DNA of 20,000 bases from an uncultured virus (IMG/VR IMGVR_UViG_2822819870_000002) (lineage: Duplodnaviria > Heunggongvirae > Uroviricota > Caudoviricetes), in the IMG/VR virus record IMGVR_UViG_2822819870_000002, positions 57,657 to 77,656 of that record; one strand, written 5' to 3'. Shown here one piece after another: positions 1 to 17,200 of this stretch. The notes beneath the pieces are model-generated. The model saw only the letters and a program-made list of their open reading frames with translations, was not told the DNA's origin and did no database searches. The number at the start of each line of letters is the position of its first letter. The first letter of the stretch is position 1. The position numbers were made by a program, and so were the translations under genes.

Positions 1-710
1 TCGCATATTGAAAAGGATTAGTACACCTATAAGTGAAACGTTCTTATGCGAGAATGTCACGGTAATGTATACCGCATAGTAGGGCGGGCAAGGCGGTAAG
101 AACCCGTGTTAAGACGAAGAGACCAATGAATGTATAACAATGACATATTCCAGTGTGGCGGGTGTGGGATAACTCGCATTCGTCATGCTGTTCTTATTAT
201 GTTTAGTGGTCAGCTCAGAGACCGCTATGTCCTCTGGGTTGATAGTGAACATAAACGTTCTTATTCTTTGTTAATACCGTTTCTTGAAAATGGAATGGGG
301 GTGGTTGCTCATGATTGAGTGAGCAATACTTGCTATTCTTGTTGTATACGTAACTTGTAATATCTTATATAGTAATTACTCACGATTTTTACTATTAGGA
401 TAAAACAGGGTGTAAAGGAACTTGTCACTCCTTTACTCTAGATAATAAGACGGATAATTCCCCTGTCCGCGTAAATCCCCATACTAATCTTGTTATCTAG
501 AGTAAGGCAGTGGAAAAACGTAGTACTGTCTTGATATAAATTAAAAAACCTTTATAAGAGAGTTACCCCATAGCTCTCGAGTCCACGGACTTAAAACGAG
601 AAGATTCTTAGTCTTCTCCCAGTCACCGAACGTAAAGCGCGTAGATAATAAGAGCTGAAAAATTACATGATGCGGTGGCTTGGAGAAGGTTGAGAGTACT
701 CAGCCTTGAA
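1..710 (+). ncRNA. Candidate large structured non-coding RNA or leader (probably 5'-truncated by the window edge)
   Basis: About a dozen consecutive hand-checked hairpins, e.g. 151-190 (18 bp, 7 G-U pairs), 197-254, 304-327, 431-507 (20 bp plus inner 451-469), 504-532, 558-578, 611-690 and 686-707. Non-Watson-Crick pairs are mostly G-U on the + strand. No credible ORF with an RBS. Confidence 0.6.
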
Positions 711-790
711 CTAATAGTGAATTTTTCATTTATTTTCCCACATCCTATTTAGGTTTTCTATTTCAAATATACAATTCGTTTATTCAAATA

Positions 791-817
791 AAAGGATATT
801 TATGACTCTTATCGAAT
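791..817 (+). promoter_or_regulatory. sigma-H-like promoter
   Basis: AAAGGATAT (791-799), 11 nt spacer, ATCGAAT (811-817); matches the Bacillus sigma-H consensus RNAGGAWWW-N11/12-RNNGAAT, upstream of RBS GGAGGGG. Confidence 0.6.
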
Positions 818-842
818 AAATTAATTTGGAGGGGATTAGGAG

Positions 843-1211
843 ATGGATAAATATATTTTTGATGAATTATTAAAGTGGGAAAAAAAATTAATAGAAAAGT
901 ATAACGCGATTGTAAAAGTGGAAAGAGAAAGAGAACTTGAATCCTTTACTCTGATGAAGAAAATTGAAATTCTAAAAAAAGTGAGTGAAAAGTTTGAAGG
1001 GGAAAGGAAAAAACTTTTCGTAAGAGCAGAAATCAATCCGCTTCAAGACAGAGAGAAACAATTAGACCAAGAAATTAAAAGCACAAAAGGGATTTATTAT
1101 GAGAATAAGGAAGAAATCGAAATTACCCTTGAATACTTAAGAAAAGAAATCGATAATGATGATGAGAGTCAGCAAATTATTACGGATGATAAAGAGGTAT
1201 TTTTAAAATGA
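843..1211 (+). CDS. Hypothetical charged, coiled-coil-like protein (122 aa), moron-like
   Basis: ORF with strong RBS (GGAGGGG/AGGAG), its own promoter and downstream terminator; very E/K-rich. Confidence 0.8.
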   Translation: MDKYIFDELLKWEKKLIEKYNAIVKVERERELESFTLMKKIEILKKVSEKFEGERKKLFVRAEINPLQDREKQLDQEIKSTKGIYYENKEEIEITLEYLRKEIDNDDESQQIITDDKEVFLK

Positions 1212-1217
1212 AACTAG

Positions 1218-1248
1218 AAAAGCATCCCAAACGGGTGCTTTTTTCTTT
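1218..1248 (+). terminator. Rho-independent terminator
   Basis: AAAAGCATCC-CAAAC-GGGTGCTTTT followed by a T-tract, 6 nt after the stop codon. Confidence 0.85.
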
Positions 1249-1378
1249 GTTATATAGAAATTACATATTAAACATATATTTATACGCGTTGTTACTACAC
1301 GCTAAGGAATAGTAATAAAAAGATGATGCCGATAAAACTATATAAAAACCAAAAGAATCCTAAGATGGGGAATGTTTT

Positions 1379-1579
1379 ATGAAAATTAAGCATGGTAAAC
1401 CTCCTTGGGTATATAAAGGATTATAATACATCGCGAGTCTATTTAGAATACTAACCATGAATTGGATGGAATTAGAAATGGCTAAACCAATAGAAATTAT
1501 ACATTAAAAGTATTTAATGAGTCATCTAGGCATAAAGATAAGCGATCATCATACAATGAAATGGAAGGGTCTTTTCTAA
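1379..1579 (+). pseudogene. Possible decayed small gene (two internal TAA stops)
   Basis: ATG after GGGGAA; frame reads MKIKHGKPPWVYKGL*YIAS...IIH*KYL...KGLF*, followed by a terminator at 1613. No recognisable homology. Confidence 0.2.
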
Positions 1580-2713: not shown

Positions 2714-3298
2714 ATGATTCTTGGGTATGCTCGCGTATCTACACAGGAACAAAACTTAGCAAGACAACTCAAACAGTTAAATGATTATGGATGTGATTAT
2801 ATATTTGAGGAGAAAACGAGTGGGGCGACAACCGATAGATCAGAATTACTACGCATGTTGGATAATTTGTGTGAAAGTGATATAGTCGTCGTTACAGATT
2901 TAACTCGAATTAGTAGGAGTACTCAAGATTTATTCAAGCTTATAGAAACAATTAAAGGAAAAGGTGCATCGATTAAATCGATAAAAGATACTTGGTTAGA
3001 TACAACAAGTGAAAATCCATACAGCACTTTCCTACTTACTGTCATGGCTGGTGTTAATCAGTTAGAGCGTGACCTGATTCGAATGCGACAAAGAGAGGGG
3101 ATTGAACTAGCCAAAGAACGTGGTGTTTATAAAGGGCGCCCTAAGAAATATGACGATGATAATCCTAATATGGAACATGCTTTAGATTTGCTTGCGAATC
3201 GAGAGACGAATAAGTTTACAGTAAAAAAGATATGTGAAGTTACTGGTGTAAGTCGTACAGTTCTTTATGAGAGAGCGAAAGAACAAGGTTTGTTATAA
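2714..3298 (+). CDS. Small serine recombinase (resolvase/invertase family, 194 aa)
   Basis: GYARVST catalytic Ser motif, DxVVVTDLTRISRS, RQREGI..AK..G.YKGRP and a C-terminal HTH (VKKICEVTGVSRTVLY); RBS GAAGGAGA. Confidence 0.95.
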   Translation: MILGYARVSTQEQNLARQLKQLNDYGCDYIFEEKTSGATTDRSELLRMLDNLCESDIVVVTDLTRISRSTQDLFKLIETIKGKGASIKSIKDTWLDTTSENPYSTFLLTVMAGVNQLERDLIRMRQREGIELAKERGVYKGRPKKYDDDNPNMEHALDLLANRETNKFTVKKICEVTGVSRTVLYERAKEQGLL

Positions 3299-3751: not shown

Positions 3752-3973
3752 TTACGCAGTCTTATAATTTTTATTTTTAATCCTATTCTTAGTATCCATA
3801 AATGTGGCGAATGTCGCTATAGTGCCACCTAAATAATAGACTTGGAATTTGTGGTCAAAAGCTAATCCTGTAATGAAATTGTAGCCGTATATAAAACATG
3901 TAATACCGAATAACCATAACATGAACTTTAAATCTTTTAAGCTCAATCTATAATTCTTAATTTTTTTCCACAT
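3752..3973 (-). CDS. Small two-helix membrane protein (73 aa)
   Basis: Start adjusted to ATG 3973 (RBS AGGAG on the minus strand, 3983-3987); two hydrophobic segments and a basic C-tail KNKNYKTA. Confidence 0.75.
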   Translation of the reverse strand: MWKKIKNYRLSLKDLKFMLWLFGITCFIYGYNFITGLAFDHKFQVYYLGGTIATFATFMDTKNRIKNKNYKTA

Positions 3974-3991
3974 ATGTATCAACTCCTATTG

Positions 3992-4189
3992 TTATGAGGT
4001 TCTATAGTTTTTCTTGATGATATTTCGCATGTCTACGATAAAGAATAGAAGGAAGATAACGGATGCGATGCCATTAATCCAGTAGTATGTGCGCCCTGTT
4101 GTGAATCCGTTATAGAAGGAATAGGCATTCCAAATTACAAGAAGTACTGAACAGACAGTAGAGATCAATAATGAACTAAAATTTCTCAT
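3992..4189 (-). CDS. Small two-helix membrane protein (65 aa), probable paralog of the neighbouring gene
   Basis: Start adjusted to ATG 4189 (RBS GAGGTG, 4196-4201 minus); two hydrophobic segments and C-tail IIKKNYRTS. Confidence 0.75.
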   Translation of the reverse strand: MRNFSSLLISTVCSVLLVIWNAYSFYNGFTTGRTYYWINGIASVIFLLFFIVDMRNIIKKNYRTS

Positions 4190-4296
4190 GATTTTCACCT
4201 CGATTCAAAATGTTAGAACTTATTTATAATTTTATATATTTATAGATAGATTTAAAATGATTGGATGTAATAAGATAATTTAAAGCAATTACTGTT

Positions 4297-4531: not shown

Positions 4532-5329
4532 GTGAAACAAAAACACAAGTTAGCTCAAGAAGATTACATGCAAGGTATGAAGTATAAGGAACTGGCTGAG
4601 AAATATGAGGTTAGTATTAACACAATTAAATCCTGGAGAAAAAGGCATGGCTGGAATCGAAAAGGGGTGCACCTAAAAGACGAAAAAGGATGCACCCAAA
4701 CCAAGAAAACAGGTGCACCCATTGGGAATAAGAATGCAGTGGGTAATCCGGGAAACAAGAATCCTAAGTATGGGAACAAGAATGCAGTAGGGCATGGCCC
4801 GCCAAAAGGGAACCATAACGCTATGACGCATGGATTGTTTAGGAAGATAATCCCGAGTGACGATCCGCATGCAATGGAATTGCTAGATGAAATACAAAAT
4901 CATACTGAATTAGATATGCTATTCCACTCTATTCAACTGCAATACTTCAATATCCTTAATTCACAACGTATTATGCATGTTCGCAGTCAAAACGATATGT
5001 CAAAAGAGATGATTAGCGAATCACTGAATGGAGACGCGTACACAGTGCAGTTTGCATGGGATAAACAAGCTAATTTACTTACAGCTTATTCACGCGCTAT
5101 GACAGCGTTATCCTCTATGATTGAGAGGTTCAATAAGTTAGCAAATGCTGATGATGAGAGACGATTGAAGTTAGAGCAGATGAAAGTTAACATTGAAAAA
5201 ACGAAAGCTGACACTGCTCGTATTAAGGGAGAAGATGGCGAAGAGTATGAAGACGATGGTTTCAAAGAGGCGCTAAAAGGAAAGGTAGAGGAAGTGTGGG
5301 ATGACCATGACGACGATTCCGAAGCGTAA
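4532..5329 (+). CDS. terS: Terminase small subunit (YqaS/XtmA-like)
   Basis: N-terminal HTH (KYKELAEKYEVSINTIKSWRKRHGW), GAPxGNKNA repeats, acidic C-terminus; directly upstream of terL; GTG start with RBS. Confidence 0.9.
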   Translation: MKQKHKLAQEDYMQGMKYKELAEKYEVSINTIKSWRKRHGWNRKGVHLKDEKGCTQTKKTGAPIGNKNAVGNPGNKNPKYGNKNAVGHGPPKGNHNAMTHGLFRKIIPSDDPHAMELLDEIQNHTELDMLFHSIQLQYFNILNSQRIMHVRSQNDMSKEMISESLNGDAYTVQFAWDKQANLLTAYSRAMTALSSMIERFNKLANADDERRLKLEQMKVNIEKTKADTARIKGEDGEEYEDDGFKEALKGKVEEVWDDHDDDSEA

Positions 5330-10173: not shown

Positions 10174-11103
10174 ATGACACTTAATAACAAAACAATTATT
10201 GAAAAAGCAGACGTTACTCTTGCCACATTGGCTAGTGGTGGTTTAATGAATCCTGAACAAGCTGATACATTTTTACGTATGGTGCAAAACTCCCCTACTA
10301 TTTTAAAGGATTCGCGCTTTATTCAAATGGCTTCAGACACACTTAAAATTGAAAAGATTGGCTTTGGTTCCCGTATTCTTCGTCCTGGCGTTGAAGGTGT
10401 ACCTTTAAAAGACTCTGATCGCTCTGCTCCATCAACTAGTACAATTACGTTAAATGCCAAAGAAGTAATTGCTGAAGTGCATATTACTTATGATACATTG
10501 GAAAACAATATTGAGGGTGGGAATCTTCAAAACACAATCATGCAGATGATTGCAGATCGTGCTGCATTAGATATTGAAGAATTAATTTTGAATGGTGATA
10601 TAGCATCTACAGATCCTTATTTAGCTTTATTAGATGGTCTGCGTAAACAAGCAACTTCGCATGTTGTAGATGGTGCTGCAGATGCATTTACTAAAGATGT
10701 ATTTAAGAAAGCTTATAAAGCTGTTCCTGCTAAATACCTGCGTAACCCTAAAGATTGGAAGTTTTATACATCACATGGTTTAGAAATTGAATGGAAAGAT
10801 CAAGTAGCAATGCGACAAACTAACTTAGGGGATGTTTCACTTCAAGGTGGTTTAGCTTCTGCTTATGGTATTCCAGTAGAGGGGATTGCTATGTTACAGC
10901 CATATAATGATGGAGCCAATACTGTATCTGATATTTTATTAACTCTTCCTAAAAATATTGTGACAGGTATGAGCCGTAATATTCGAATTGAAGTGGATAA
11001 GGATATTCGCGCTCGTAAATTCATTATTGTTTTAACTGCGAAAGTTGATGTGAAGTTCGAAGAGGAAGATGCAGTGGCAAAAGTTATCAAAGTTAAGGAG
11101 TGA
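10174..11103 (+). CDS. Major capsid protein (XkdG-like, HK97 fold)
   Basis: [22 protein letters not shown] and DGLRKQA motifs; strong RBS AAGGAGG; expected position. Confidence 0.9.
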
Positions 11104-11109
11104 TGACTT

Positions 11110-11277
11110 TTGAATTACTATGCTAAATTAATAGTCGGGAAAACATATGATGTCCATGAACGTCTATTTTTATTGGGGCAAGAAGAGAAGGTTACAAAGA
11201 AAACGTACGATTATCTAAGTGGTAACGAACAATTTGCAGTCCGAAAAGAAGGTAGTAAATCTAAAGGAGAGGAGTGA
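11110..11277 (+). CDS. Small YqbF-like head-associated protein (55 aa; missing from the ORF track)
   Basis: TTG start after AAGGAGTGA; MNYYAKLIVGKTYDVHERLFLLGQEEKVTKKTYDYLSGNEQFAVRKEGSKSKGEE resembles the AKLIxGKTY...V.KK.Y.YL..N..F pattern of skin YqbF. Confidence 0.75.
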   Translation: MNYYAKLIVGKTYDVHERLFLLGQEEKVTKKTYDYLSGNEQFAVRKEGSKSKGEE

Positions 11278-11282
11278 TAGGT

Positions 11283-11675
11283 ATGTCGCTTATTACTGCT
11301 CAAGAATTAATAGATTATACTGTGCTGCCTGAAGTGAAAAAGCGTCCTGTTCCTCTATTGGAGCAGGATATACTTGAGGCGGAAACAGAGATTAATAATA
11401 TTCCTAACATAGCTAATTTCGCTGATATAACGAGATTCCCGGTAATTCCTAAAGAGGTAAAACTAGCTTGTAAGAAGTTGGCACAGCATTACGCTTATAA
11501 AAATGCTGATACGAAAGCTATGGAGGGCATTAAGTCTGAAAGTGTTGGTGGAGGGGATTATTCGTATACGAAGGATAGTTCAAGTATCACCAAACCGGAT
11601 GTGCTTAATTTATTAAAGGGATTTATACCTAACACAAGTAAAAAGAAAGTCATATTTAAAATGAGGTCTATTTAA
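11283..11675 (+). CDS. Head-tail connector/adaptor (YqbG/DUF3199-like)
   Basis: LEQDILEAE, VKLACKKLAQ and KSESVG..DYSY motifs; start ATG 11283 after GGAGTGA. Confidence 0.8.
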   Translation: MSLITAQELIDYTVLPEVKKRPVPLLEQDILEAETEINNIPNIANFADITRFPVIPKEVKLACKKLAQHYAYKNADTKAMEGIKSESVGGGDYSYTKDSSSITKPDVLNLLKGFIPNTSKKKVIFKMRSI

Positions 11676-12067
11676 TGTCTCTAAAAGGAATGATGGTTCA
11701 CGCATGTGATGTTTACCATTTGCAGAAGAAAGAACAGCCAGGTAAGTTTGGTCAGCCAGGAGAAACTGTATATTATTACAATGAAAATCCTGATATAGCA
11801 GAACAAATTTGTTACTTTGCAGAGAATGTAGTAAGTGCTAGACCTACTGCAATACAATCTGCACCAAATCAACTAAATGAACAGCACACACGAGTGCTAT
11901 TTATGCCTGGTACAGATATAAAACATAATGACAAGGTAATCAAGAAGAATACTGATGTCGTTTACTATATACGCAATCCTTTTCCGGTAGTGCATCCACT
12001 TACTAGCGAGGTTTCGCATATAAAGGCCACTGCAGAAAGGAAGAGTGAGCCATGGTTAGCCAAATAA
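11675..12067 (+). CDS. Head closure/joining protein (YqbH/XkdH-like)
   Basis: HACDVYHL, CYF and GTDIKHNDKV motifs; TAATG translational coupling. Confidence 0.8.
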   Translation: MSLKGMMVHACDVYHLQKKEQPGKFGQPGETVYYYNENPDIAEQICYFAENVVSARPTAIQSAPNQLNEQHTRVLFMPGTDIKHNDKVIKKNTDVVYYIRNPFPVVHPLTSEVSHIKATAERKSEPWLAK

Positions 12068-13501: not shown

Positions 13502-13924
13502 ATGCGTTTTGAAATTAAAGGGAAAGAACACGAATTAAAACTTACTTATAAAACAATTGCTGAGCTAAACAAGAAATATAAAGTTGGCGCACAAGAAGTT
13601 ATTGGAGCTTGTTTACAAGGTGATTTAGATATGTTTGAAGACGCTATTTACTTTGGATTAATGCATACAGGTGAAGGAATCACTAGAGAGCAAGTTGTTA
13701 CTGAAATTGAAAAGCAATTCGAAGCAGAGAAAATCTCGCAAGAGTTCATTGATGAAATTCTTAACGAAGTAGTAGCAGATAATTTTTTCTACAAAGCGAC
13801 AACGAAGAAATTAAAAACACGAATGAAGAAACAATTGGTAGCGAAGAATCCGGAACTGAAAGAGATGGCGGACGAGATGTACGGGACGGACGAAGAACAA
13901 CCGACTTTACTAGAGAAGAACTAG
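13502..13924 (+). CDS. Tail assembly chaperone (gpG-like)
   Basis: MRFEIKGKEHELKL N-terminus typical of tail chaperones; lies between tube and tape measure genes; start ATG 13502 after AAGGAGA. Confidence 0.8.
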   Translation: MRFEIKGKEHELKLTYKTIAELNKKYKVGAQEVIGACLQGDLDMFEDAIYFGLMHTGEGITREQVVTEIEKQFEAEKISQEFIDEILNEVVADNFFYKATTKKLKTRMKKQLVAKNPELKEMADEMYGTDEEQPTLLEKN

Positions 13925-14238
13925 ACAAGGTACAGCAAGATGGATTTAGATACTTAGGTTTATTACCAAATGAGGTAATGAACCTGACTCCCCGCGAGTT
14001 TCAAAATATGATGACAGGGAGAAATGAACAATATCTAGATGAATTGCAAACCTATAGCATATTTGCTCTGATGATGCGCTCGGTTTATCACAGTAATCCA
14101 AGGAAGAGTATGAAACCAAAAGATTTATTTGATAGATCGAAAATGGTTACTGATGAACAGAAGAAAAAATCTATTGAAAACCGCGCGAAACAGGCTGAGG
14201 AAAATATGGAATTCTTACAAAGTCTCAACTTCGGTTGA
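13783..14238 (+). CDS. Tail chaperone C-terminal (gpT-like) segment, probably made as a -1 frameshift fusion
   Basis: The -1 frame relative to 13502 is open from 13783 to 14238. Motif LGLLPNEVMNLTPREF begins upstream of the ATG at 13978. Confidence 0.65.
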   Translation, partial: FFLQSDNEEIKNTNEETIGSEESGTERDGGRDVRDGRRTTDFTREELDKVQQDGFRYLGLLPNEVMNLTPREFQNMMTGRNEQYLDELQTYSIFALMMRSVYHSNPRKSMKPKDLFDRSKMVTDEQKKKSIENRAKQAEENMEFLQSLNFG

Positions 14239-14257
14239 TTGAAAGGTAGGTGAGATT

Positions 14258-17200
14258 TTGGCGACACAAGAAGAATTAGTAGTTCAGTTTAGAGCGGAAA
14301 CAGATCAGATGCGAAGAGAAATGGCGGCTATGCAAAGTCAATTAAATGATTTTGTTAGAACAACAAATCGTACATCTTGGGAGTATCGAAGAAGCATCGA
14401 GAATATGGGGGATGCGAATAGCGAATTAAGTAGGGAAATACGTGAAATAAACAGACAACAAAGAGAAGCTATGAAACCGCATATAGAACAATTAAAGCGA
14501 GTAGAACTTCAATATTTGCAAACTGCTATGAGCATGGATATTTATACTGGTTCAGCTCAAGATTTAATTGCACAAGTTAATGAGATTGGTAAAGCGCAAA
14601 AAGCTGCCAATGATGCATTAATAAACAATAATGTTGAAGCAAAAGCTGCTATTTTAGAAACAATTGCAACCATGAACAATATGACTCCTACAGCAACTAG
14701 GCTCAGAGACAATCTAAGAACAATGGGAAATCCATTATACAGCTTGTCACATGGGGCGTTAGCTGTAGGAGAGGCTATCGAAAGAATGGCGAATAGGGGT
14801 AGTGCGGCACAATTAGCATTAGAATTTGTTGGTCCGAATGCGTCAATGAAAGAATTAAACGAACAAATACGAGTAATAAATACGGGATTAATGCGAATGC
14901 AAATGGTTGCGCTCGCTGCTGCGATTTCTTCTGTCTTATTGTATGGCGCATTACACAAGGCTAACATGGAGATGAATCCAAAATATGCTGAAGCATATAC
15001 AAAAATGCTAGAAAAGCTATCTGAAGCCTTTAATCCGATGAAAGAAGCTTTCGCAGCAGTTATGATACCTGTTTATAAATTCGTAACCGCGATAGCAGAA
15101 TTGATAATTAAATTTAATGAAGCACACCCGGTTCTAGCTAAATTCATTCAGGGAACTATGATGTTAGTTCCAGCATTAACATTGATTCTTGCTCCCTTAG
15201 CAGTCGGTATTGGACTTCTAAAAGGATATAGAGCAGCCTTATTTTTAGTTTGGCAAATGGTGAAACCATTGGTTTTAGGGTTAATGGTCGTCAGCCCTGT
15301 AGCTTGGGCTGTAGCTGCTGCAATTGCTGGATTAGCAGTAGGGTTTACGTATGCATATAAAAACATAGAGCCGTTTAGAAAAGCCGTTGATAATACTGTA
15401 ACAGCGATCAAAGGCTTATTCCAGTTGGTATTCGGAAGTCAAATAAATGGCGAAAAAATGCTTAGTTCTATCGGAATGAACGATGAGGTTATACAAGGAA
15501 TCAATAAATTTGTAGGCAAAATTGAAGAAGCATTTAGAATAATGAAAGAAGCTATTGTACAGGCTTTCCATGGTGATTTTTCTGGACTGACTGAATTGTT
15601 CAAAATAATTTTTCCTTCATTACTTGCCGTAATTATTGGCGGTGTACCTGGGCTAGTCATTGGAATTGGCACTATGTTCGCAAGGATGACAGAAGCAACT
15701 GGTGTTGGTGGCGCTCAAATGGTTACTAAGTTCGGGGAAATCCTGAATAACTTAGTTTCTGGATTAACAAATTTTGTAACGACTCAATTACCTGTTTTTC
15801 TAGAACAAGGAATTAAAATAATCACTGGAATAGTGCAAGGGATCACGCAAGCACTTCCACAAATTGTAGCAGCCGTTTTGCAAATCATTACAACCTTTAT
15901 AACAGGTATCACAACGCTGTTACCGCAGATTATAACAATTGGTATTTCTTTGATACAAACACTCGTAACGGCTATTGTAACGGCTTTACCTGTCATTATA
16001 GAAGCGGCGGTTCAGATTATAAACGCGCTTGTTCAAGGTATTACACAGATGTTACCTATGATTGTACAGTCGGCAATACAAGTTATAACAATGTTCATTC
16101 AAACAATAATTCCTATGATTCCTATGTTAATAGATGCAGGGATTCAAATTTTACTATCTTTAGTTAATGGAATCATTCAAATGCTACCCCAATTAATTGA
16201 AGCGGCTATTCAGATTCTGACAACATTATTAAATACCATTGTTCAAAATCTGCCGTTAATTATAGATGCAGGGATTAAAGTCCTTAATTCATTAATTGAG
16301 GGAATCATTCAAGTGCTACCTCAATTAATTGATGCTGTGATGCAGATCATTACGAAATTCACTGAGGTTGTTATTCAAAATCTACCGCAAATTATTGAAT
16401 CAGGAATGCAAATTTTAATAAAACTGGTAGACGGGATTATTCAAATGCTCCCTCAGATTGTAGATGCGGTTATTAAAATAATTACGAAGTTTACTGAGGT
16501 TATAGTACAAAATCTACCACAAATTATAGATGCAGGTGTGCAAATATTAACTAAATTAATAGACGGGATAATTAAAGTGCTACCTCAATTGGTTTCTGCT
16601 GCAATAAGGTTAATGGCGGAATTGTTAAAAGCAATTATAGAACATTTACCACAATTGCTAGCAGCTGGCGTTGAACTAATAGGTGCTCTAATTGACGGTA
16701 TTTTGAGTTTAATTGGCGAAGTATTCAGCTCAGGTGTAGAAATTGGCAGTCAATTATTAGAGTCTTTAGGAAATGTCGATCTCTTTGAAACTGGGGTAAA
16801 TATTGTTCAAGGATTAATAGGTGGAATTGGTTCGATGATTGGCGATGCAATAGATGCTGCGAAGGATTTAGGAAGTAGCATTGTTAGTACTGTAAATAGA
16901 GTATTACAAGTTAAGTCCCCTTCTAGGGAAATGCGAGATACAGGTAATTACGTCGGTGAAGGTTTAATATGGGGTATTAACCAAATGGAGAACCCGGTTT
17001 TAAGAGCCGCAAAGAATATGGCAGTAACAGTGAGGAATGCATTTGATTCGTTATCAGAAGGGATTTTACTTGGTGATGTTTCAATGGGGGCTGTATCAGG
17101 GACAACAATTCCAATGGTTTCTGCTGGATACAAAACACCTGCAAATGCCTCAAGAATATCCGCAATTTCTAATTTTGGACAAGATGCTGTAAGTAAAAAC

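Follow-up and report, generated by a model that had tools for sequence, protein, structure and literature searches.

A probable new family of large structured RNA in temperate phages of the Bacillus cereus group, with an RsaE/RoxS-like 3′ end in most relatives

The locus and its features

The window analysed here is a 20,000-nucleotide (nt) stretch of DNA, the final 20 kb of a 77,656-bp virus record in IMG/VR (G000:C1:57657–77656). It opens inside a gap free of open reading frames (ORFs) that runs from window position −100 to 842 (L001 ~1400 to 2342 in the numbering of the locus, where window position = L001 position − 1500), and in this gap lies the element described in this paper, which we interpret as the gene for a large structured RNA. 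The full element extends from ~13–16 nt upstream of window base 1 to ~790, and the RNA would thus be about 0.8 kb long in the window and 0.77–1.0 kb in relatives. There is one copy in the record, and the G+C content of the RNA 5′ part (0.42–0.49) exceeds that of the flanks (0.25–0.33).

The features of the element and its neighbours are given in Table 1. Upstream are genes for an ArpU-family protein and a DUF5512 protein; downstream come a 122-amino-acid (aa) ORF, a terminator, a resolvase gene, two small ORFs and then the terminase and other morphogenesis genes. The resolvase gene and the two − strand ORFs break the otherwise + strand layout between the RNA and terminase. An initial annotation, made from the letters of the window, had placed a candidate RNA of more than 700 nt upstream of the morphogenesis operon. 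Upstream it is, though only loosely so, as the small terminase begins at 4532 and a terminator, the resolvase gene and the two − strand ORFs lie between. The segment 1216–1281, comprising the terminator and the next ~40 nt, recurs in contigs of relatives ~360 nt past their copy of the RNA and is a conserved junction.

Table 1. Features of the RNA element and its surroundings. Positions are those of the window unless marked L001 or G000:C1; colons join the two sides of a helix.
Feature	Position	Strand	Remarks
Structured RNA body	1–702	+	fold z, outlier status among 22 windows, block order in 57 homologues, no Rfam match
Hairpin 33–44:51–60	33–60	+	10 pairs, 100% paired, almost invariant
Conserved multi-stem junction 63–68:106–111; 72–75:84–87; 95–97:102–104	63–111	+	91–100% of cells paired
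18-bp stem 151–168:173–190, AUAA loop, 7 G-U pairs	151–190	+	most conserved block of the family
Long variable hairpin 197–206:245–254 and 210–220:232–242	197–254	+	94–95% paired
G-rich element GGAAUGGGGGUGG	292–304	+	exact complement of RsaE-type seed CCAUCCCC
Hairpin 303–311:316–324	303–324	+	two-sided changes in 5 of 9 pairs
Hairpin around UAGUAAUUACUCACGAUUUUUACUA	369–395	+	9 pairs, 84% paired; 5 with compensatory types (57 sequences)
Small hairpin 415–422:428–435	415–435	+	92.4% paired
Long stem 436–449:489–502, variable apical part	436–502	+	12 pairs (436–447:491–502) 100% paired, 7 of 12 compensatory; plus 2 further pairs
Hairpin 503–510:525–532	503–532	+	two-sided changes in 3 of 8 pairs
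Long 3′ helix 604–632:668–697 enclosing a small hairpin	604–697	+	common to Waukeshavirus phages
Local hairpin GGUUGAGAGUACUCAGCC	686–707	+	alternative to outer pairs of long 3′ helix
Degenerate remnant UUUUCCCACAUCCUAUUU of RsaE-type seed UUUCUCCCAUCCCCUU	733–750	+	no seed match within 2 mismatches in window tail
Conserved motif GGATAT-N12-TATCGAATA	794–818	+	between RNA and next ORF
Direct repeats CGACAAAAA / CCGATAAAAAA / GGGGGAATTTT and −10-like box	L001 1420–1486 (G000:C1 ~57576–57642)		
ArpU-family gene	L001 412–795		upstream of RNA; TIGR01637, 49.3 bits (cut-off 43.1)
DUF5512 ORF, lipoprotein-type N-terminus	L001 885–1364		between ArpU-family gene and RNA
Hairpin and T-run, terminator as judged by eye	L001 ~1376–1400		
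122-aa ORF	843–1211	+	no family match; 3′ of RNA
Intrinsic terminator, strong	1216–1250	+	first good one 3′ of RNA in the window's phage
Serine resolvase/invertase gene	2714–3298		PF00239, 134.9 bits
Two small ORFs, hydrophobic products	3752–4198	−	between RNA and terminase genes
Small terminase	starts 4532		followed by large terminase, portal and remaining morphogenesis genes

A strand-specific fold without coding potential

As + strand RNA, window 1–730 folds to −238 kcal/mol (RNAfold), compared with −176 ± 6 for dinucleotide shuffles (z −9.9, with none of twenty shuffles as good). The − strand of the same segment reaches −162 kcal/mol, a z of only −1.0. Among 22 consecutive 730-nt windows of the record, 1–730 has a z of −10.6, and the rest lie between +1.4 and −3.9. 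Two segments within the head and tail gene block, 10951–11680 and 13871–14600, have moderately low values of −3.9 and −3.5, far weaker than that of 1–730. The structured RNA of more than 700 nt on the + strand that the initial annotation had proposed is thus borne out by its standing among the 22 windows and by the difference between the strands, and the stem-loops it listed are real and far beyond chance.

The longest ORF in 1–842 has 62 aa and no Pfam match. Across 57 homologues (described below), the longest + strand ORF has a median length of 50 aa, and the short ORFs are not conserved. We also considered a protein-coding reading, which these short, unconserved ORFs and the lack of a Pfam match for the 62-aa ORF rule out.

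Nor did the element resemble a known family of RNA. Rfam 15 gave no match at gathering score anywhere in the 20-kb window, and at E ≤ 10 window 1–1300 matched only miRNA, leader and terminator look-alikes that were far below threshold. The models of the large phage RNAs GOLLD and ROOL were unmatched at gathering score in the 20-kb window, at E ≤ 10 in 1–1300 and at E ≤ 0.1 in fourteen relatives, and no model of EAR or another antitermination RNA was matched in the window or in those relatives. The earlier statement that the sequence is not GOLLD, ROOL or the put RNA of phage HK022 agrees with these searches. ARAGORN called no transfer RNA (tRNA) or transfer-messenger RNA at the window's locus, and there were no tRNA genes in 92 related loci of ~3 kb.

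Homologues and host range

Homologues are 50–86% identical to the window's element. Using blastn, we found 21 matching records among 50,697 phage records. The nine best covered, a number that counts several phages as both GenBank and RefSeq copies, match over 25–76% of the element with 74–86% identity, and include IEBH, LY4, 0105phi7-2, 250, PfNC7401 and PfIS075. The other twelve have only a 48-nt piece (SpaA1, BceA1, phi4J1, phiS58, BMBtp3, Waukesha92 and TP21-T). One of these, ‘Staphylococcus phage SpaA1’ (HE614281.1 / NC_018277.1), for which the host is given as S. pasteuri, has the same piece of the 3′ helix as the Bacillus phages BceA1, Waukesha92 and TP21-T. The Waukeshavirus phages (TP21-T and Waukesha92) carry a shorter version of ~530 nt, with a fold z of −4.6.

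Seventeen of the 21 records have no annotated feature beneath the match. In each of four annotated phage genomes that we inspected, the match falls in an unannotated gap of ~0.9–1.1 kb that sits directly or one gene past an ArpU-like gene, ahead of small ORFs and the terminase. A term search of the accessible text of three phage papers, on the 0105phi7-2 genome (PMC10219371), on PfNC7401 curing and its transcriptome (PMC9143728) and on an emetic B. cereus phage (PMC5590980), found no mention of the region.

An exact 20-nt block of the 3′ helix was present in 109 IMG/VR stretches, from which we kept 57 non-redundant full-length copies (790–1026 nt, counting flanks of 25 nt on the 5′ side and 110 nt on the 3′ side). 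All 57 have the same block order and spacing. Large insertions and deletions are confined to loops or remove whole hairpins, as with hairpin 33–60, which is missing as a 34-nt block in three relatives (L050, L076 and L043). The initial annotation had left open whether this was one large RNA or a cluster of RNAs; the fixed block order and spacing, together with a single promoter-like start and, in relatives, a single terminator (see below), favour one large RNA, and the cluster can be set aside.

When the block of the 18-bp stem was used as a scan pattern, it identified fifteen loci in a set of species-representative genomes, many of them on phage-sized contigs, and thirteen of the fifteen were in assemblies of the B. 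cereus group. R1, a covariance model built from the 3′ helix, matched 44 of 71 genomes from species of the host genus, with E ≤ 2e-9 in 30 and several copies in some; fourteen genomes with weak matches of 33–50 bits, as well as reverse-strand echoes, were not counted as members. In a sample of 151 genomes from the order, R1 had three matches, all in the host genus, and none in the other 148. Within the genomes searched, the RNA is therefore restricted to one host genus. The L128/L117 pair among the fifteen stem-block loci carries other labels: one lies on a 55-kb contig labelled Paenibacillus sp. 102, and the other on an 865-bp contig with coverage of ~1 in a Chryseobacterium assembly, which is probably contamination.

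Conserved helices and compensatory changes

We counted base pairs on MAFFT alignments that had not been fitted to the structure, and used slid partners as controls. Among fifteen diverse sequences, 95.5% of cells in the 5′ domain are paired (37.5–48.2% when slid), with fourteen double-change pairs against two to four. The covariation score of 0.157, compared with 0.025–0.050 for slid partners, was reached by none of 500 shuffles. This signal comes chiefly from hairpin 197–254, in which both sides have changed and yet remain paired in twelve of twenty pairs. Other parts of the domain vary far less: the junction at 63–111 is mostly invariant with one compensatory pair, and the 18-bp stem, exactly as initially described with its seven G-U pairs, is 98.5% paired with fourteen of eighteen pairs invariant. 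The middle domain (eighteen sequences) has 89.8% of cells paired against 27.5–47.4% slid, nineteen double-change pairs against three to eight, and a score of 0.304 against 0.044–0.108. Its hairpin 503–532 occurs, for example, in the variants AAGGCGU/ACGUCUU and AGGGGGA/UCCCUCU. Hairpin 369–395 was not recovered in one of the MAFFT alignments (A3).

In the 3′ domain (sixteen sequences, alignment A4), a 26-pair helix is 98.3% paired, with thirteen invariant pairs and twelve one-sided (wobble) changes. With two further variants from other phage groups added (eleven sequences), 21 pairs of the helix are 95.7% paired and four are double-change pairs; the whole tested 3′ structure in these eleven sequences is 94.4% paired against 39–52% slid, with five double-change pairs against zero to two. 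The local hairpin at 686–707 can still be formed in relatives, in whose tails the sequences differ. In one relative (L083, ~1790–1900, − strand), the apex of the long middle stem holds an insertion of ~90 nt with two T-arm-like GGTTC(G/A)ATTCC motifs, in which ARAGORN called no tRNA.

Consensus folding and pair counts support many of the stems first listed from the window's sequence (151–190, 197–254, 304–327, 369–395, 408–430, 431–507 and 504–532), and the stem at 611–690 is backed as part of the longer helix 604–632:668–697, with 686–707 as a local alternative. The stems at 1–51, 60–74, 84–107, 128–150, 558–578, 579–592 and 598–618 can form in the window, but the consensus has other pairings there, or invariant or variable sequence. 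The statement that the stems lack terminal U-tracts does not hold in the strict sense, as stem 151–190 is followed by UUCUUAUUAU and was terminator-like in the consensus scan.

Across the alignments, G-U cells outnumber A-C cells by 342 to 49, and therefore the + strand is the one under selection. Selection at the level of RNA, initially argued from the G-U pairs of a single stem, now has behind it this asymmetry, the compensatory changes found in homologues, through which the helices are kept, and the fact that only the + strand folds better than its shuffles. The same evidence bears on the alternative that there is no RNA gene here at all, and that the region is an accumulation of repeats, the remains of a protein gene or a DNA-level site (pac or cos, an origin or a site of recombination). 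Its place upstream of the packaging genes would suit such a site, as would its inverted repeats, which typify DNA sites too. However, the strand asymmetry in both folding and wobble pairs and the compensatory changes speak for RNA, as do a 3′ module homologous to a small RNA (sRNA) with a terminator, the lack of a conserved ORF or Pfam match and the single copy in the record, and we regard this alternative as extremely unlikely. The element has the features by which structured non-coding RNAs are generally recognized (compensatory changes, no coding capacity and strand specificity), and we are highly confident that it is one discrete structured non-coding RNA gene of a new family.

The 5′ end and the late regulator

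Sequence conservation begins abruptly at (T/G)TACAAGC(C/T)C (L001 ~1484–1492), 9–16 nt before window base 1, and we place the RNA 5′ end at G000:C1 ~57641–57644. A −10-like box (TATTAT, CATTAT, CTTAAT or TTATAT) lies 5–6 nt before ACAAGC in all 64 distinct upstream regions. Upstream of the box, direct repeats recur every ~11–12 nt in two to four copies; their sequence varies with phage type, and there is no good −35 element. The repeat type of the window, CGA[CT]AAAA, forms its sole cluster in the 77.6-kb record at C1:57580/57591, just ahead of the RNA. Some relatives have an additional hairpin directly after ACAAGC. We also considered TTGACA at the window edge as a −35 element and rejected it, as there is no −10 element at 16–18 nt, a hairpin is inserted in the adjoining loop in one relative (L077), the hexamer is paired in the consensus and the scan found no promoter.

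The gene that precedes the RNA belongs to the ArpU family in the window's phage and in Cecivirus-type phages; with TIGR01637 (cut-off 43.1), the homologue in IEBH scores 46.5 bits and that in PfNC7401 scores 42.7 bits, just under the cut-off. Comparing loci in which an ArpU-like ORF ends directly upstream, we found that the repeat type matches the type of the ArpU C-terminus in 25 of 25 loci belonging to four recurrent types (11 + 8 + 3 + 3). Because the sequence of the repeats follows the type of the adjacent protein, they are candidate ArpU binding sites, and we lean towards an activator-dependent late promoter driven by the late regulator. In Waukeshavirus, the gene directly 5′ of the RNA encodes an Xpf-like ‘positive control sigma-like factor’ (NF005385, 223.5 bits in TP21-T). 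With an Xpf-like gene here and ArpU elsewhere, the place behind a late regulator is kept across unrelated regulators.

A position such as this raises the alternative that the RNA is a cis-acting leader of the late transcript, which would modify the polymerase so that it reads through its own and later terminators (processive antitermination, of which HK022 put and B. subtilis EAR are examples). The element does lie directly past the gene for the late regulator and the putative activator sites, and the record's only repeat cluster is located there. It shares its strand with the genes for packaging and the head; in most relatives a terminator closes the element, with genes within 25–60 nt. On the other hand, a further terminator, the resolvase gene and two − strand ORFs intervene before terminase in the window's phage, and a length of ~800 nt is ten times that of put. 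The GGATAT-N12-TATCGAATA motif, which occurs once in the 77.6-kb record, is found just past the terminator in 36 of 102 distinct tails of relatives; this conserved motif may act as another promoter or operator, and with a promoter-like motif in this position the late genes may have their own start. The seed derived from a host sRNA (next section) also has no place in a leader model. We consider it quite unlikely that the RNA serves as such a leader.

An RsaE/RoxS-like tail and an internal anti-seed

In nearly all relatives, the RNA ends in a C-rich seed, usually with a terminator, and genes begin within 25–60 nt downstream. Run in E-value mode, Rfam matched the full model of the host sRNA RsaE/RoxS (RF01820) in four of fourteen related loci, at 43.6–52.4 bits and below the cut-off of 79. 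The RsaE-like module starts 20–40 nt past the long 3′ helix, and no promoter-like site was found between the two. Each of five host genomes has one true RsaE (93.5–96.5 bits), and two of the five also show matches of 32–34 bits (32.4–34.3), one of which is on the contig of the element, just past the 3′ helix.

The relationship to the host gene is clearest in the tails of L057, L064 and TP21-T, which show plain homology to RsaE of the B. cereus group over ~80 nt. The homology spans a CCCC-loop hairpin, GAACGUGA, UUUCUCCCAUCCCCUUU and a host-specific spacer, UAAUAUUUUUAUAAGCCGUAAA; the terminator alone differs. In other variants of the tail, the first hairpin is replaced, and the single-stranded seed and the terminator are kept. 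We looked for the 10-nt C-rich seed UCCCAUCCCC in 102 distinct tails and found it in 95, including 62 exact copies, twenty with one mismatch and thirteen with two. Three of the remaining seven keep related C-rich motifs, and four have lost the seed (those of the window, L065, L073 and L123). In the scan with a 15-nt seed pattern, 43 of 119 loci were chance matches without context; these were excluded, and the classified remainder was used. The tail of PfNC7401 (L005 3613–3675) has a DUF3800-VIII RNA motif (RF03075, 60.4 bits against a gathering score of 40.2) in place of the relatives' terminator hairpin.

From these sequences, the 3′ end of the RNA was most likely captured from a host RsaE/RoxS gene and kept for its seed. 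According to the available text of two papers (PMC6158497, PMC4409812), RsaE and RoxS use C-rich seeds to pair with G-rich ribosome-binding sites, and repress messenger RNAs (mRNAs) of the TCA cycle, folate and arginine metabolism. None of the open-access papers searched linked RsaE/RoxS to phages, prophages or the B. cereus group, and none described an RsaE-like module carried by a phage.

Downstream of the window's own copy, the first acceptable terminator is the one at 1216, and the transcript, if made, therefore probably runs on through the 122-aa ORF, which is possibly co-transcribed with the RNA in this phage.

The G-rich element GGAAUGGGGGUGG within the RNA body, an anti-seed in that it complements the seed, is conserved in homologues, where the only common variant has A for the fifth G, opposite a U of the seed. 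Its counterpart in TP21-T is the related AAAGGGGUUGAU. The anti-seed is retained in the window's copy, whose own seed is lost. It could serve to close the molecule or to mask the seed, or it could stay free for host RsaE, in which that seed is also present.

Presence in RNA libraries

Twenty RNA-labelled sequencing runs contain 0.06–0.17 of the window's sampled words, and no run has the window's own sequence as RNA. At 80% likeness, contigs of relatives fall on the element in four RNA libraries from four studies. A soil metatranscriptome has 45 contigs on the element, and one of these (442 nt) begins at window base 2. Long contigs of three libraries (X10, X14 and X17) cover whole prophage regions. 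There is no contig cover upstream of the element or over its variable middle, which may simply reflect the divergence of the relatives. Since assembled contigs can contain DNA, these results establish presence in RNA libraries only.

Proposed function

Our analysis adds three things to the initial annotation: the place behind the gene for a late activator, the anti-seed within the body and, in relatives, the 3′ module derived from RsaE/RoxS. We propose a late-expressed structured non-coding RNA gene of temperate siphophages of the B. cereus group that would act on the host RsaE circuit. We regard this reading as a whole as an even call.

Under this proposal, a late regulator bound to the phage-type-specific repeats would activate the RNA, with transcription starting at the conserved ACAAGC, 5–6 nt past the −10 box, so that the RNA would be made in the late lytic programme. 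It would then act in trans on the host RsaE/RoxS circuit. With its RsaE seed, the RNA could pair with mRNAs that RsaE targets, at their G-rich ribosome-binding sites, and thus reach central metabolism, or its anti-seed could titrate host RsaE, or both; the large folded body might confer stability or a further activity. Given an RsaE/RoxS-derived 3′ end and the known repression of metabolic mRNAs by RsaE, interference with the RsaE circuit is the best-supported mechanism. That the RNA acts through this circuit during phage development, whether as a mimic, a sponge or both, is nevertheless a tentative proposal with the balance somewhat against it. In the window's copy, which has neither seed nor terminator, at most the function of the body would survive. 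A more specific version would be a chimeric ‘giant sRNA’, in which a scaffold of ~0.7 kb under the late regulator carries a captured RsaE seed and an anti-seed, and so both imitates and silences RsaE, as the host's master sRNA for central metabolism, while virions are produced. A second activity of the scaffold, independent of the tail, would maintain selection on it even in tail-less copies such as that of the window. We consider this version doubtful.

Along with the caveat about RNA-library contigs, several observations weigh against the proposal. Every phage copy of the RsaE-like module falls below the gathering score of 79 bits, and the window has no RsaE match even at E 10. The seed is missing but the body kept in the window's copy and in a few more (L065, L073 and L123; also L264 and L267). 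Although RNAalifold pairs seed and anti-seed in 88% of cells, there is no compensatory change, and in the ensembles of 43 single homologues the median probability of this pairing is near zero, exceeding 0.3 in only five. The repeats adjoin the ArpU gene, so their association with its type may be mere linkage. The structures were predicted from the same alignments that were used for the pair counts, and the sequences share kinship; in alignment A4, the ten double-change pairs are no better than the six to ten obtained with slid partners.

Because the body is kept in copies without a tail, it must have a role independent of the tail. This persistence favours an alternative in which the RNA is an ornate self-folding or self-assembling molecule of the GOLLD or ROOL kind, produced as the phage develops, where the body (a scaffold, a cage or the core of a ribonucleoprotein) is what functions and the RsaE-like tail is an add-on that provides a 3′ end or stability. 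The size, the location in phages, the dense conserved helices and the invariant blocks that keep their G-U pairs (the 18-bp stem is one) are all in keeping with this, and GOLLD, ROOL and OLE are described as forming homo-oligomers in the available text of PMC12286853. Yet no Rfam family is matched, none of the 92 loci has a neighbouring tRNA gene, and 95 of the 102 distinct tails keep the seed, an argument for selection on the sequence of the tail. We think an RNA of this kind, with an incidental tail, unlikely.

The anti-seed suggests another alternative, in which the RNA is a decoy only, a sponge that removes host RsaE through the anti-seed, or RsaE-binding or processing factors through the tail, and does not itself regulate mRNAs. 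The anti-seed is an 8-bp perfect complement of a seed also present on host RsaE and is retained in the window's seedless copy, and B. subtilis has a known RoxS sponge, RosA (available text of PMC8216469). There is, however, just one anti-seed per 0.8 kb, with no covariation expected or seen, and a decoy would leave the strong conservation of the seed in relatives unexplained. We judge this to be improbable.

It is rare to find a large, intricately folded RNA of bacteria or phages with unassigned function, and every new class has led to new biology. The RNA described here occurs commonly in B. cereus-group prophages and plasmid-prophages, is strongly supported by comparison of relatives and has a fixed place in the phage regulatory layout, and for annotation it fills an ‘empty’ gap of ~1 kb in many published phage genomes. 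Unlike GOLLD and ROOL, it offers a direct functional lead in its RsaE/RoxS-derived 3′ end and internal complement to the seed of that sRNA. If the proposal is right, phages have captured a host riboregulator to steer host metabolism, and the function of a large ornate RNA becomes testable by ordinary phage genetics.

Comparison with known systems

The closest likeness is to RsaE/RoxS (RF01820). In most relatives, the 3′ module has the UUUCUCCCAUCCCCUU signature, often with a CCCC-loop hairpin before it, and then a spacer and a terminator. RsaE/RoxS is a free-standing sRNA of ~110 nt with its own promoter, whereas the phage module is fused to a structured RNA of ~700 nt. The phage copies score 32–52 bits against a cut-off of 79 and 93–96 for the host gene; the first hairpin is mostly replaced and the terminator differs. 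The window's tail lacks both the C-rich (UCCC/CCCC) seed motif and the terminator that the relatives have. Like RosA, the B. subtilis sponge of RoxS, the RNA has a G-rich segment that complements the C-rich RsaE/RoxS seed. It differs from RosA in being phage-encoded and much larger, with a single anti-seed and a seed as well; the likeness is one of complementarity, and we claim no homology.

GOLLD and ROOL, at 0.6–0.8 kb, are also large, intricately folded RNAs of phages and prophages in Firmicutes, and typically lie next to tRNA genes. The RNA described here differs in having no Rfam match and no adjacent tRNA, in its fixed place behind a late regulator, in its host-sRNA-derived tail and in its confinement to one host genus. 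In the open-access papers searched on ROOL and GOLLD in Bacillus prophages, we found nothing of its kind. If the proposed promoter is correct, the RNA resembles HK022 put and B. subtilis EAR in that a structured RNA is transcribed first, ahead of a long operon with terminators. EAR has an Rfam family. The phage RNA is far larger, has no match to either in sequence or family, and has its own terminator at its end.

Finally, the arrangement at the 5′ end is like that of activator-dependent late promoters of the RinA/ArpU/LtrC/Alt type in Gram-positive phages, with an ArpU-family gene directly upstream, direct repeats before the −10 box and no good −35 element. The activator Alt of phage TP901-1 has similar repeats at its late promoter. 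Activator-dependent late promoters described so far drive terS directly, whereas in the window's phage the first product of the putative promoter would be a large non-coding RNA.

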